Virus record (IMG/VR): IMGVR_UViG_3300033004_000002
Coordinates: 1 to 56,059 of that record
Length of the DNA stretch: 56,059 nucleotides
Direction: 5' to 3' (one strand)
Source: a virus
Taxonomy: Duplodnaviria; Caudoviricetes
Shown: piece after piece, positions 33,604 through 51,663 of the stretch
Numbering within the stretch: position 1 is the stretch's first letter
Layout of the letters: each line of letters begins with the position of its first letter
Translations under genes and position numbers: made by a program
Notes under the pieces: generated by a model
Told to the model about the DNA's origin: nothing
Databases searched by the model: none
The model's input: only the letters and a program-made list of their open reading frames with translations

Positions 33604-35619
33604 CTACCTGACTCGTCTTGCGCGGATGTAGCCATAAGCCCCGTTGGTGCTCACCGCAAACGTACTAGTGGCGACCAGGTAAACCGTCGTAGTCCCGGAC
33701 AGTGAATAGCGCGTCGGAGGAATGACGGCATCGATCCCGGGCTGGCTGGCCGAGGTCGCGACGCTGGTTTGATAGGAGTCGACTCGAACGTCCCCGGTGC
33801 CGGTGCCGGCCCGCGCTCCGGGGAAGGTCGCCGAGGTCGTCGTGATCGCTCCGCCGATGAACGTCTGTGTGGTCGACGCGGCCGGCGCCATTGCCACCAT
33901 GCCGGACACGTCCCAATCCCCGGCCGTCAGCGAGATGCTCGTGACGTTGGCCGCGACGCCGGAGGTCAGCGCCACGGCGGACCCGAGAACCACCGAGGCG
34001 GACACGAGCTCGCCGACGCTTCCCGCGGCCGCGTTGTTGTTGGTGTTCGTTCCGACGATGTTGGCAGTGTTCAGCGTCGGGCCGTTTATCGTCGGACTGG
34101 TCAGCGTCGCGCCGGTGGCGCGCACGTAACCGGTGCCCGCGGTGCCCGTCGGCGCGCCGCCGTTGTCGTAGACGGCGCCCTGCACGTTCAGGGTACCGGC
34201 GCCCTCGTTCGCGCCGGTCGGTGCACCGAGCGTCGTGCTACCGTCGGGATAGACGTTGATCCAGTTCGCAAGCGAACTGGTGCCTGTGAAGACGTGCCAG
34301 ACACCGCTCGCATCAGAGGTCGTGCCGGCCGCATTGGTTGCCGACGAGAAATAGACATAGACCTTACGGCCCGTCGCGCCGTCGCCGAGATAGGTGTCCC
34401 GATTGCTGTCGTTGCGGAATGCGACATTGCCCGCGCCGTCGCAGAGCTGGACCATGCTGGTCAGCGAGGACGACAGCCCGCTGCAGCTGCCGAGGATCAT
34501 GTCGTTCGAGCCGGTGATGACGCCCGAGCCAGCCTGGCCAGCGGCGGCAAAGAAGTTTCCGAGCCCCGTCGTCAGAGTCGGCGCTGCATTTTCGCCCAGA
34601 AACAGCCCGCTGCCCGATGTCAGAACCCCGGCGGAATTATAACCAACCGCCGTCGATCCATTGCTGGATAGCGTCGCCGCCGACAGGGCAAACGCGCCGT
34701 AACCCGTGTTTCTGGACGTGGGCGCCGATTGACCGCTGTTCGAGCATGTAAAGTAGCCATGGCAGGTATTGTAATCGCCGAGACCGATGCTGAGCGTGCC
34801 GAGAAGTGCTTTCCAGCCGCTCGAATCGTTGCCGGCGCCATCGATGTTGTAGATCTGGTTGGCCTCGCCCCAGCCTGCGTTGCCAAAGCACGTCGTGCAA
34901 AATTCCCCGGTTTCGAAACCGCCAAACGTATCATAGCTGGCGGTCGTCATGTTGAGGCAGGTCGTGAGACCGATGCAGGCGATGTACCGGCCCTGCAGCG
35001 AGACCGCCGTCATCGCCGTGGGAGATGCGACGGTCTGCGACGGCGAAACCGTATAATGCCCGATGCCGCCGGGCGTTCCGGAGACTTGCGCCCTGATCTG
35101 GGTGCCGACCGTGACGCCTGATCCAGAGAGCGTTGCCGTGCTAATACGCTCGACAGGTACCGTCCCCGTCGTGATCGCGGTCACGTTCATATCCGTGCCG
35201 GTAATCGTCGCCGTGAACGTGCCGGCGTTGTGCACCAGGCTCGTGCCGCCGTTGCCGACCATGAGCGTGGAGTTCGCCAGACCGTTGTCCAGCATCCCGG
35301 TCGAGGGCACGTTCCACAGGACCGTGGTTGCCCCTGTCCCGGAGTCCATCTGCACGGCGCCGAGCGAATTGATCGAAATCGTGGGATTGTTGCGCAGCGT
35401 GAGCCCGCTCGTCCCGTTCCACGTCGGGATGCCGCGATCGGTCGATGATCCGGGGCCGCCGATGGCGCCGAGGCTGGTGCGCGCAGCAGCAGCGGTCGCC
35501 CCGCCCGTCCCGCCCTTCGGGATCGACAGCGGCGAGGTGCCCTGATTGACCTGGGCCAGCGCCGGCTCAGAAATGAGCACGAACGCAAGCGCCAGCGCGA
35601 TGAGGCCGCGGAGCTTCAT
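33604..35619 (-). CDS. Tail fibre/spike-like protein with N-terminal signal peptide
   Basis: G/T/S/A-rich; [22 protein letters not shown]-x-x-G repeats; C-terminal LTAGDWDV...YIRARRVR domain; signal ...EPALA|Q. Confidence 0.8.
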
Positions 35620-35666
35620 GATGTCAGTCCGATGATGGGATGATGGGAGTTAGGAGTCGCGCGGAA

Positions 35667-36038
35667 TCACTCCGGCGCGACAGGCTCGGGTTTGTCGACA
35701 GGCCCGGCGGGGGTAGCCTGCTTGGTCTTGGCCGCATCGTCGGCGGTTTTCTTCGCGTCAGCCGCTGACTTTGGGGCAGCATCGTCGGCGGCCTTCTTTG
35801 CCGCAGCGGCCTGCGCCCTTTTCACCTCATTCTGCAGTGCCACCACCCACATCGAGATGGAGCGGCACACCGCGGCATCGTTGCGCAGCATCAGCGATGC
35901 CACGCAGCTATCGACCATCGAGGGCAACTGCGCCGCTGCGGTCTGCGCGCCATCATCGAAGTCGATCACAATGGGGGTCGCCGAGGCCGGCGCAGCAATG
36001 AGTGAGGCGGCAAATGCCGCAACATAGATCAGTCTCAT
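35667..36038 (-). CDS. Secreted protein with Lys/Ala-rich tail
   Basis: Signal peptide ...APASA|T; KKAADDAA/KKTADDAA repeat. Confidence 0.75.
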   Translation of the reverse strand: MRLIYVAAFAASLIAAPASATPIVIDFDDGAQTAAAQLPSMVDSCVASLMLRNDAAVCRSISMWVVALQNEVKRAQAAAAKKAADDAAPKSAADAKKTADDAAKTKQATPAGPVDKPEPVAPE

Positions 36039-36089
36039 GGATGGTTTCCCTTATATAGCCGCCGCTTTGAAATGGAGATCAGTGAGCAT

Positions 36090-36494
36090 TCAGTTCGCCG
36101 GCACACAAAAATCCTTGGCGAAGTAGGCATTGATCGACGTCGGATCGAGCGCGATTCCGATATCGATAGCCAGTTCGGCCGCCCGGCGCATGGCGAGCGA
36201 CTGAAACTCAGGATCCCATCGCGCGCTGTTGGGATAGACCTTTCCGTCGATGTTCAGATAGTAGCTCGTGCCCGGTGTCGGCACGTCGGCATGGCCGATG
36301 ATGATGTCGCAGCTTCCGTCTCTCAGGCTCCGCGCGGCGCCCGCACCGACGACCAGATTATTGAAGCCGATGATCTGAGTATGTGCCATTGGTGCGCCAG
36401 GCGGCGAGGTCAGATCGACAGAGGCAACGTCCGCCAGAGCAGGCATGGTAGCTAAGGCCATGGTGACGGACGCAGCGATGATGATGCATCTCAC
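36090..36494 (-). CDS. Secreted protein, fibre-repeat-like
   Basis: Signal peptide ...MPALA|D; AGGAG RBS with GTG start. Confidence 0.7.
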   Translation of the reverse strand: MRCIIIAASVTMALATMPALADVASVDLTSPPGAPMAHTQIIGFNNLVVGAGAARSLRDGSCDIIIGHADVPTPGTSYYLNIDGKVYPNSARWDPEFQSLAMRRAAELAIDIGIALDPTSINAYFAKDFCVPAN

Positions 36495-36524
36495 GGGAAT
36501 CTCCTGAATGTTTGTTGGGAAAGA

Positions 36525-49997: not shown

Positions 49998-50008
49998 GGA
50001 CGAAGGGG

Positions 50009-50317
50009 TCAGTTGGCGATCACTGTTTCGCCAGCCAGGATTTCCTGCTGCTGCCGGTTGATCTCGATCGCGGTCTGCAGCGACTCGATCAGGATGGCGG
50101 CGGACTGCGGCGTGCAGCGCAGATGCGCCACGCAGACCATCTCGCCGCTCACACTGCCGTCGGGCTTGGGCTGCAGATAGCGCGCGGTCAGCTCGACCTC
50201 GACATTGCCGTTGAACGAGCCGCGCACCGGCGCGCTGTCGAAATAGATCAAGGGCGCGGTCGCGGCGTTCTTCATCATCGGAATGGACGCGGCCGGCGGC
50301 GTTGATCGGAGGGACAT
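50009..50317 (-). CDS. Hypothetical protein
   Basis: AP.IYFD...G...G.V.VEL...VAHLRC pattern; AGGA RBS. Confidence 0.75.
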   Translation of the reverse strand: MSLRSTPPAASIPMMKNAATAPLIYFDSAPVRGSFNGNVEVELTARYLQPKPDGSVSGEMVCVAHLRCTPQSAAILIESLQTAIEINRQQQEILAGETVIAN

Positions 50318-50332
50318 GAGGGGCTATTCCTG

Positions 50333-50776
50333 TTACTGCGCGAGGTAGCCGACGTTCAGCGTGATCCCGGTCGCGGCGTTGGTGTTGTCGTTGTCGGCTT
50401 GGCCGGCGACGATGCAGAAGCCGATGCCGGCCGTGAAGCGTGTGTCATCGAAGCCGATGGAAATGACGCCAGTCGAGGTCGTGGTCGGCGGCAAGGGAAT
50501 GGTGACCTGCGGCGTATCGGTGCCGCAGGTCGGCGCAGTCGCCTTGTTGTAGAACTTCAGGTAATAGATCGTCGCCGTGTTGTTGTAGACGATGATCCAT
50601 TTCAGGATGTTCTGGCCAGCGCCCGAGACCAGCGTCGAATTGTTGGACGCCTGCGACAGGTAATGAAACGGGATCGCCTGCAGCGACTGCGCCCGCGCGT
50701 CGGCCGACGCAAACGCGACAACTGCCGCAAGAAGCGCAGCGGCGACTCGCATCAGCTTTCCATTGATTGACATCAT
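50333..50776 (-). CDS. Secreted-type beta-sandwich virion accessory protein
   Basis: Signal ...DARA|Q; YLKFYNKATAPT.GTDTP, F..GI. Confidence 0.78.
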   Translation of the reverse strand: MMSINGKLMRVAAALLAAVVAFASADARAQSLQAIPFHYLSQASNNSTLVSGAGQNILKWIIVYNNTATIYYLKFYNKATAPTCGTDTPQVTIPLPPTTTSTGVISIGFDDTRFTAGIGFCIVAGQADNDNTNAATGITLNVGYLAQ

Positions 50777-51663
50777 TGCCGATACCCCCATGCCGAGACG
50801 GACACCACACCGCCGGAGCCTGGAGCTGCCGAAATCACTGCAATAGCCTGATTGGCACCAGAGGCAGGAATGCAGGCCCTGCCGAACGGTGGTTCAGTGA
50901 TTCCGATGCCACTCGCGAGAGGTGCGGTCCATTGCGTGAAATTCATCGTTCCGGTTATTGTGCCCGTGACCGTCGCATTGCCCGTTGCAGCCGCGGTCGC
51001 ATTCGCACGGATCGAAAATCCGCAAATATATGTCGTGGTGGTCGAACTCGCCGCCAGCGTTGCAGTGGTCGCGCCCGTCGTTCCCGTAGCCGATGCGGTA
51101 ATCGGAATGGCACCCAGCGGATATAACGACGTCAGCGTGACCGGAAAGTTGTTGTCGGCCATTACGGAGGAGATCGCTGTCGATCCCAGCATGGCAACGT
51201 TGACGCTGCCGCTCGCAATGTTGGTTCCGACGATCCGGATCGCCGACATGCCGGCGGCATTGATTTGGAAGATACCATTGGCTGTGATGGCCGTAACGGA
51301 GGCGCCGCTCGTCAAGGAGACGGCCGTCGTTACACCCCACGTCGCGCTGGCTGCGCCGACCTGGCCATAATCGACCGATGCCTGCACCTGCAACGCGCCG
51401 GTCCACGTCCCCGTGACGGAAAGACCAACCGTCGATTGTCCGTCGACGGGAATGACGACAGAATCGTTGGTCGACGCGATCGACCGGGACGTCGCAGCCC
51501 CACTGCATGGCACAGCCTGGGACTGACTGTTCAGGCACATGACGACTTTGCCGTCGACCTGAGAACCGCCCGGTGTCGTAAACGAGCTTTGGGCCCGCGC
51601 GGAAAATGCTGCGAGCGAGAACAGCAGCGAGAGTGTGACAGCGCGGATGATACCCAAGATCAT
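50773..51663 (-). CDS. Secreted-type S/T/A-rich virion accessory protein
   Basis: Signal ...SARA|Q; two beta-rich domains; ATGA coupling to the portal. Confidence 0.78.
   Translation of the reverse strand: MILGIIRAVTLSLLFSLAAFSARAQSSFTTPGGSQVDGKVVMCLNSQSQAVPCSGAATSRSIASTNDSVVIPVDGQSTVGLSVTGTWTGALQVQASVDYGQVGAASATWGVTTAVSLTSGASVTAITANGIFQINAAGMSAIRIVGTNIASGSVNVAMLGSTAISSVMADNNFPVTLTSLYPLGAIPITASATGTTGATTATLAASSTTTTYICGFSIRANATAAATGNATVTGTITGTMNFTQWTAPLASGIGITEPPFGRACIPASGANQAIAVISAAPGSGGVVSVSAWGYRQ

Follow-up and report, generated by a model that had tools for sequence, protein, structure and literature searches.

Predicted Sec-type leaders on late proteins of a temperate short-tailed phage and a proposed two-compartment route of particle assembly

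To our knowledge, textbook accounts of tailed-phage morphogenesis place every virion part in the cytoplasm. Virion proteins with cleavable leaders are familiar from the filamentous phages, where pIII and pVIII are inserted or exported before they join the particle and pIII needs periplasmic disulfides, but these phages are extruded through the envelope and have no cytoplasmic capsid. Tailed phages also route late proteins through host Sec and signal peptidase, namely secreted or signal-anchor-release (SAR) endolysins, spanins and the T4 antiholin RI, as reported in PMC8385771; unlike the proteins considered here, these are not candidate virion components. In the accessible portions of the literature, including PMC12656738 and PMC13412088, no account was found of Sec leaders on tailed-phage capsid cement or tail fibres, or of such parts maturing in the periplasm. 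The subject of this report is a set of seven late proteins with Sec-type N-termini encoded in IMG/VR virus record IMGVR_UViG_3300033004_000002, the whole 56,059 bp of which was analysed and is called the window below. The record carries direct terminal repeats at its ends and is a complete 56-kb genome of a temperate short-tailed soil phage which, in contrast to the filamentous phages, has an HK97-type head. We put at roughly 60% the probability that these seven proteins are made with cleavable Sec-type signal peptides, and that the outer parts of the particle mature in the periplasm and dock after the inner membrane has been breached.

Cellulophaga phages of the Pachyviridae supply a cultured precedent. 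In the GenBank entry KC821620 of phage phi18:3, gp085 to gp087 are marked as structural by tandem mass spectrometry (MS/MS) proteomics and all three have leader-like N-termini, as have gp079 to gp083 of phage phi46:3. By that GenBank note, at least one cultured tailed phage has leader-bearing, fibre-sized proteins in its purified particles. The Cellulophaga proteins resemble those of the window in being fibre-sized late proteins whose N-termini show n-, h- and c-regions and end in A-Q or S-Q, and they differ in their Bacteroidota host and in having few cysteines (0–4); the likeness is one of N-terminal form and not of compared sequence.

Signal peptides were called in the window with a purpose-written heuristic, which scores the charge of the n-region, an uncharged hydrophobic core of 7–18 residues and small residues at positions −3 and −1, the latter being required within 8 residues after the core. 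It was applied to 68 genes called by a codon log-odds model. All seven Sec-type N-termini proposed in the initial annotation were recovered with their motifs, a charged start, a hydrophobic core and small −3/−1 residues, at 35619 (ALA/Q, the slash marking the predicted cut), 36038 (APASA/T), 36494 (MPALA/D), 38775 (APAHG/A), 47413 (TAAFA/L), 50776 (DARA/Q) and 51663 (SARA/Q). At least one lysine or arginine precedes the hydrophobic core in 7/7 cases, the best h-regions comprise 11–13 uncharged residues with a mean Kyte-Doolittle hydropathy of 2.2–3.3, and proline is absent from +1 at every site. The marks of Tat and lipoprotein signals are absent: RR occurs in 0/7 n-regions, and Q, T, D, A, L, Q and Q stand at +1.

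Six of the seven proteins take the top six scores of the 68 genes (3.49–4.35), and the seventh, a 334-aa protein read from the ATG at 38775, scores 3.56; next below them come a membrane protein resembling Wzy_C (3.27) and one of 122 aa (3.03). Scores of 3.4 or more were obtained for 7 of the 20 genes within 33604–53660 and for none of the 48 elsewhere (Fisher p 8e-5), and also for 3 of 309 open reading frames (ORFs) outside the gene set. When each protein was shuffled over its whole length 500 times, the observed score was matched 0, 1, 1, 2, 0, 0 and 10 times, respectively. The scorer found no signal-like N-terminus on the portal, scaffold, capsid, p175, p131, 569-aa protein, three ejection-type proteins, p237, p177 or p102, which bears out the earlier statement that core parts of the particle lack signals for the portal, scaffold, capsid, 569-aa and ejection-type proteins. 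The start codons of the seven reading frames are credible on the evidence of their surroundings: CAGGAGA stands ahead of the GTG at 36494, TGGAGG ahead of 47413 and AAGGGAA ahead of 36038, a purine-rich GGAAAAGG lies upstream of 38775, and two starts show 4-base overlaps, that of p296 (51663) with the portal stop and that of p147 (50776) with the p296 stop. Multiple cysteines had also been claimed for several of the signal-bearing proteins, and the predicted mature forms do contain 8, 2, 2, 2, 2, 2 and 4 of them, all even numbers, compared with 5, 3, 6, 2, 2, 2, and 1 or 0 in the proteins lacking a leader.

Among the described cement proteins, gp06 of the Pseudanabaena podophage Pam1 (7eel chain H) is a jellyroll protein of 140 aa, of a type that forms trimers, and is encoded directly after the capsid gene gp05. 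In the window, the capsid cement (decoration) homologue p170 (46901–47413, minus strand) similarly lies directly downstream of the major capsid gene (47505–48668), and its mature part of about 141 aa is predicted to share the fold and the trimeric state. Its AlphaFold2 (AF2) model, with a mean predicted local distance difference test (pLDDT) value of 77, consists of a detached helix at residues 3–23 followed by a beta-sandwich. The best fold matches were to the cement protein of Ralstonia phage GP4 (capsid chain 8h89_J; Z 9.7, root-mean-square deviation (rmsd) 3.4, 130 residues aligned) and to Pam1 gp06 (Z 9.0, rmsd 3.5, 117 aligned; Foldseek E 2.9e-5). The cement protein of the Helicobacter phages KHP30 and KHP40 (7dn2, 7dou; Z 8.1 for 7dou_4) and, more weakly, that of Bordetella phage BPP-1 (3j4u chain H; Z 5.7) share the fold as well; the next unrelated rows in the search had Z values of 6.8 or less. 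Three copies of mature p170 gave a predicted trimer score of 0.91, as against 0.00 for the best of three controls, with a contact agreement between runs of at least 74% and a partner pLDDT of at least 86. Of 30 solved pairs of one chain, 20 attained the mark used, as did 1 of 23 proteins solved as single chains, and the pass of p170 may reflect memory of, or likeness to, similar trimers in the PDB. A role in capsid decoration is supported by the modelled cement fold, the gene position and the predicted trimer.

Where p170 departs from Pam1 gp06 is at the N-terminus and in its cysteines. The Pam1 protein starts MPATNSAQ, without a hydrophobic segment, and has one cysteine, whereas p170 carries a leader at residues 1–29 (47327–47413, AFA/L) together with Cys82 and Cys160. 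Homologues of p170 number 472, and a hydrophobic segment forming a leader of 20–40 residues precedes the mature part in all of the best 120. The last three leader residues are A-x-A in the six commonest forms, which make up 106 of these 120 rows, and among the 15 commonest leader ends (116 rows) 115 end in A and one in G; the conserved mature start LxVDQTR follows the A-x-A. In the same 120 proteins the two cysteines co-vary, both being present in 90, both absent in 28 and a single one found in 2. Within the predicted trimer residues 83, 159 and 161 of one copy all contact residue 76 of another, which suggests that the two cysteine-bearing strands are neighbours.

The second protein with clear relatives among virion proteins is a 334-aa tail fibre or tail-collar-type protein (37771–38775, minus strand). 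It matches phrog_8763 (tail protein) with E 4e-41, is 30% identical to the tail fibre of Pseudanabaena phage Pam5 over 86% of the query, and shows 34–38% identity in its C-terminal part to collar-domain tail proteins, although no Pfam Collar domain, nor any other Pfam family, was detected at E ≤0.1. The likeness to the Pam5 fibre and to the tail collar proteins of Bordetella and Pseudomonas phages is one of sequence, and the leader (residues 1–27, 38695–38775, AHG/A) and the pair Cys49/Cys81 are stated here for the window protein alone. There are 2809 homologues, some of them named 'microcystin-dependent protein' by their source.

A leader is present in 108 of the best 120 of these homologues, and another 11 start M-AGT, exactly at the predicted cut of the leader-bearing forms, the mature start of the window protein being AGTTPLS. 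An in-frame stop lies 0–3 codons upstream of the methionine in leaderless M-AG(T) relatives at seven loci (L050, L052, L053, L070, L078, L082 and L101), so that at the DNA level the leaderless start is not a choice made in gene calling. Since Met-Ala starts are normally trimmed by methionine aminopeptidase, leaderless and leader-bearing members would reach the same mature end, AGT, if the methionine is removed. Of the indirect evidence for removal of the leader at the predicted site, these natural starts are the strongest piece obtained. The cysteine pair follows the leader. In an alignment of 54 rows, 18 proteins have leader and pair, 11 a leader without the pair, 25 neither and none the pair without a leader; for the best 120 proteins the corresponding numbers are 105, 3, 11 and 1, the start of the last being probably truncated. 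On a quick tree of the N-terminal domain, built from the 54 rows, the leader state changes at least nine times and the leader would therefore be an evolutionarily labile switch. A tree-corrected comparison of leader and cysteine pair yielded four independent pairs on supported branches, none of them in the opposite direction.

Some further features of this tail-protein family may be recorded here. At residues ~119–127 of the window protein, seven glycine codons (SSGGGGGGGT) join the N-terminal domain to the remainder. All 32 homologues listed retain this run, a few of them with serine in place of one glycine. The leader-bearing relative at L064 (10001–10972) lacks the usual cysteine pair and has a short insert, CSNTSAAC, near its N-terminus, the two cysteines of which may form a replacement disulfide. 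On the Pseudolabrys contig L101 (~12230–14008) the tail protein is leaderless and free of cysteine, and the next large gene encodes a product with a pectate-lyase-type tailspike start and a hydrophobic leader.

The 671-aa tail fibre (33604–35619, minus strand), with a leader at residues 1–22 (35554–35619, ALA/Q) and eight mature cysteines, matches the tail fibre family phrog_11393 over its C-terminal part. No match to it was found in five related records, as expected for a variable receptor-binding part. The genome comparison covered three related genomes of 45–57 kb (G001–G003; G004 was left out), the fibres of which are unrelated over most of their length and share the start, MKLR followed by a hydrophobic stretch and A-x-A, then Q-V-x-P-G-T. 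A search with the first 110 residues yielded eight proteins, and a leader with A-x-A combined with an even mature cysteine count occurs in 8/8.

Cysteine counts bear on the position of the cut in the family of p296 (50773–51663, minus strand), a protein of 296 aa with two beta-sandwich domains, a leader at residues 1–24 (51592–51663, ARA/Q) and four mature cysteines. At E ≤1e-3 this family counts 971 representatives; among the best 150 (less than 50% mutual identity, 150–786 aa) a high-scoring leader is present in 126, with glutamine at +1 in 56 of them. The total cysteine count is odd in 32 of these 126 proteins, each of which has exactly one cysteine inside the predicted leader, and the mature count is even in 126/126, with 2 cysteines in 19, 4 in 55, 6 in 32, 8 in 17 and 10 in 3 proteins. 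Fixed cuts at 25, 30, 35 and 40 residues gave even counts in only 120, 102, 90 and 85 of the 126, respectively. The mature start of p296 in related loci reads QSPNTDTYFYTPGG. A portal-based scan yielded 27 related loci, with p296 homologues in 4 and p170 homologues in 8, and all of these start with a different hydrophobic leader ending in A-x-A, followed by the conserved mature start. The next gene, for p147 (50333–50776, minus strand; 147 aa, or 152 aa if read from the ATG at 50791), shows the same behaviour: its leader covers approximately residues 1–29 (50690–50776, ARA/Q) and is followed by a mature part with two cysteines that is 82% identical to the homologue in L009/G001, where the leader differs and the ARA/QSL junction is unchanged.

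A parity control was extended to all proteins of the related loci after dereplication at 60% identity, with scores of 2.5–3.4 and ORFs lacking an upstream stop dropped. The leader class had 49 even and 10 odd cysteine counts, at 1.45 cysteines per 100 aa, and the other proteins had 187 even and 213 odd counts, at 0.63 per 100 aa. Even counts, together with pairwise gain and loss of cysteines, are the signature of proteins in which all cysteines form disulfides, and in a Gram-negative cell this points to the periplasm. Across three protein families the predicted leaders keep their form while their sequences differ, and their presence goes together with cysteine pairing. Export to an oxidising compartment, with oxidative folding outside the cytoplasm, is strongly supported as a prediction because the leaders are conserved in form, the leaderless relatives start at the cut, the cysteine pair occurs only with a leader and the mature cysteine count is even in 126/126 p296 relatives.

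For the assembly of the particle we propose that the seven precursors would cross the inner membrane by Sec and be cut by signal peptidase I at the A-x-A/G site, after which the mature parts would fold in the periplasm, where their cysteines would pair and oligomers would form. Over the same period the DNA-filled head would be built in the cytoplasm, together with portal, adaptor, hub and ejection proteins, and the two pools would come together once lysis opens the inner membrane, at which point the outer parts would dock. Docking at so late a stage is physically reasonable because, classically, P22 tailspikes can be added to finished heads in vitro; its timing would be set by a holin. We infer that the proteins are exported and cut at the predicted sites, when they dock, and that four of the seven belong to the virion, and homology and the cultured precedent of phi18:3 argue that the exported parts would join the particle. 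The initial annotation had assigned virion roles to the signal-bearing proteins, and such roles are supported for p170, the 334-aa tail protein and the 671-aa fibre and are not established for p296, p147, p134 and p123. Of its suggestion that these parts mature in the periplasm along a two-compartment route, export to an oxidising compartment is the portion that gained strong comparative support, the route itself remaining a proposal, and for the 'modification' that it also envisaged no evidence was found besides disulfides. The proteins themselves belong, or are related, to known virion families; the novelty lies in the leader-plus-disulfide state and in the route of assembly implied by it. 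Whether particles are built in two compartments in this way throughout a widespread clade of tailed phages infecting soil Alphaproteobacteria, with cement, fibres and further jellyroll proteins taking the Sec route and the leader being a labile switch that moves a virion part from one route to the other, we regard as evenly balanced.

The alternative to which we give most weight, while considering it rather unlikely, is that the proteins are exported and yet are not parts of the virion, and instead have an envelope function in infected or lysogenic cells, such as masking or modifying receptors, superinfection exclusion or keeping progeny off debris; virions would then be made with other proteins, or with a minor part of these that stays in the cytoplasm. 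Such a role would suit p296, p147, p134 and p123, which have no virion homologue, and the resemblance of the N-terminal domain of p296 to YomS, a prophage lysis-cassette protein (Z 9.1), as well as a temperate phage with a serine recombinase and a Wzy_C-like membrane protein suggestive of surface conversion, albeit with a match below the Pfam cut-off. It accords poorly, however, with p170 and the 334-aa protein each being present once and corresponding, in position and structure, to the Pam1 cement protein and the Pam5 fibre, with no leaderless second copy among the 68 called genes, and with the location of the genes inside the late operon with coupled starts; leader-bearing fibre-like proteins have, moreover, been detected in phi18:3 virions. 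Distinctly less probable is that the hydrophobic N-termini stay uncleaved, as helices anchoring the proteins to the inner membrane or lying buried in the particle, with all assembly in the cytoplasm. AF2 does model single N-terminal helices (residues 3–23 of p170 and 2–19 of p296) and T4 head assembly starts on the membrane, but a structural helix would not lead one to expect a segment whose sequence and length vary freely while small residues persist at −3 and −1 and those immediately following the cut are conserved, relatives without the segment that start at the predicted cut, or a cysteine parity that is restored only by removing the predicted leader, and if the N-terminus of the segment lay in the cytoplasm, the mature domain would end up in the periplasm anyway. 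That the leaders are an artefact of chance or annotation, arising from wrong starts or from hydrophobic stretches in Ala/Leu-rich proteins of high G+C content, is hardly credible: the window is indeed Ala-rich with 62% G+C and the codon-usage score of p296 is low (16.2), but the signal score attained by 7 of 20 structural genes is attained by few of the non-gene ORFs (3/309), the leaders are conserved in hundreds of relatives, and ribosome-binding-like sequences or 4-base start/stop overlaps lie ahead of the starts.

Several observations weigh against the proposal of periplasmic maturation and late docking itself. The signal calls rest on the purpose-written heuristic rather than on SignalP. 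In the tail-protein family 11 of the 29 leader-bearing rows have no cysteine pair, so disulfides are not the sole reason for a leader, and the tree-corrected test of leader against pair was underpowered and not significant (median p 0.5). Nor was there significant coordination of leaders between neighbouring fibre genes, a leader being found next to 11 of 23 leader-bearing and 3 of 14 leaderless loci (p 0.17). Some phages are mixed (L070, L076, L082 and L101), having a leaderless tail protein and a fibre or tailspike with a leader; they fit a model in which each outer part may take either route and all meet at lysis, and agree just as well with the rival explanations. The usual view is that cement proteins attach to heads inside the cytoplasm, from which a leader would separate them until lysis, an unusual arrangement for a cement protein. 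For p296, p147, p134 and p123 a virion role is not established, and no holin, endolysin or spanin was identified by Pfam or PHROGs, including in the region 30.5–33.5 kb. Disulfides can, furthermore, link tailed-phage parts that have no leader, as reported in PMC13576161. No phage-encoded Dsb, thioredoxin or signal peptidase was found among 30 scanned window proteins, smaller ORFs lying outside the scan.

If cement and fibres do mature in the periplasm, the last steps of assembly would take place during or after lysis, and the phage would come to depend on the Sec, signal peptidase and Dsb functions of its host. Receptor-binding proteins stabilised by disulfides would be an adaptation of phages that is predictable from sequence, of relevance for expressing such fibres, for engineering the host range of laboratory phages and for annotation, where late-operon genes with signals are easily dismissed as non-structural. 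The data yield testable predictions in the form of exact mature N-termini, specific cysteine pairs and natural leaderless controls.

Pfam gave no family for any of the seven leader-bearing proteins and PHROGs none for five of them. The roles of the 334-aa tail protein and the 671-aa protein as fibres are supported. An Atlas search with p147 returned unnamed viral clusters only, plus one XepA-domain row by structure. The C-terminal domain of p296 (~175–295) is modelled by AF2 with pLDDT above 90 and is a conserved module of a large family of variable length; the fold matches of the protein, the best being to YomS over residues 56–162 and to a satellite-virus coat over 183–296 (Z 8.2), are of a generic jellyroll or beta-sandwich kind and no function was assigned from them. 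The codon-usage score of p296 refers to 296 codons, its neighbours scoring about two to five times more per codon, and a 295-codon ORF in another frame overlaps it (50894–51781), despite which p296 is conserved in hundreds of relatives. Two small genes precede the fibre gene on the minus strand. That for p134 (134 aa, 36090–36494) has a GTG start and a leader at residues 1–21 (36432–36494, ALA/D, score 3.78), with one cysteine in the leader and two in the mature part, and that for p123 (123 aa, 35667–36038) has a leader at residues 1–20 (35979–36038, ASA/T, score 3.69), two mature cysteines and an Ala/Lys-rich tail. Neither has a Pfam or PHROG match, and a leader-bearing 128-aa ORF just before the fibre gene of L042 is a putative homologue of p123, as judged from its position.

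The late genes lie on the minus strand in the order portal, p296, p147, p102, a 350-aa acidic protein in the scaffold position, capsid, p170, p175, p131, a 569-aa connector or hub-type protein (phrog_578), an 87-aa protein, three large proteins of which one has a DNA-ejection PHROG, the 334-aa tail protein, p237, p177, p134, p123 and the 671-aa fibre. The portal protein (51660–53660, minus strand) matches phrog_156 with E 1e-86 and the major capsid protein (47505–48668, minus strand) matches phrog_334 with E 9e-75; neither has a signal-like N-terminus. Between the 334-aa tail protein and the fibre, the leaderless proteins p177 (177 aa) and p237 (237 aa) are encoded within 36525–37768 (minus strand); they have no family match in Pfam or PHROGs and their homologues in G001–G003 are 58–69% identical and occupy the same position. 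For the capsid protein the closest match shows 36% identity and is followed by those of the Pseudanabaena podophages Pam1, Pan3 and Pam5, and a megablast search with the head module gave no match among cultured phages. The host is probably a Bradyrhizobium/Pseudolabrys-type bacterium of the Hyphomicrobiales, because relatives of the 334-aa tail protein occur in a Pseudolabrys metagenome-assembled genome (MAG) and in a related prophage of Bradyrhizobium sp. YR681 and, more distantly, in Sinorhizobium, Neorhizobium and Shinella. The assignment of the phage as temperate follows from a large serine recombinase (28702–30399, plus strand) with Resolvase, Recombinase and Zn ribbon domains, and one related record, G005, is classed as a provirus.

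The G+C content is 59–67% in 2-kb windows and 62% overall. A large terminase gene occupies 3415–5037. Between the portal region and the genome end, a 577-aa late gene product (54207–55940, minus strand) has homologues with 73–82% identity in G001–G003 and is without a Pfam-independent PHROG match. The 395-aa multi-pass membrane protein (1358–2545, minus strand) shows a weak match to Wzy_C (O-antigen ligase/polymerase) at 28.7 bits, the cut-off being 31.7, and may be a prophage surface-conversion gene. Genes for tRNA-Phe (GAA; 13714–13807) and tRNA-Asn (GTT; 17569–17643) lie on the minus strand, the former call being unusually long at 94 nt. Also on the minus strand are several early or middle genes, encoding a 614-aa protein with an MT-A70 methyltransferase domain (15295–17139), a DUF5131 protein (12156–13328), a DUF2303 protein (9449–10252) and a NusG-like protein (6212–6790).

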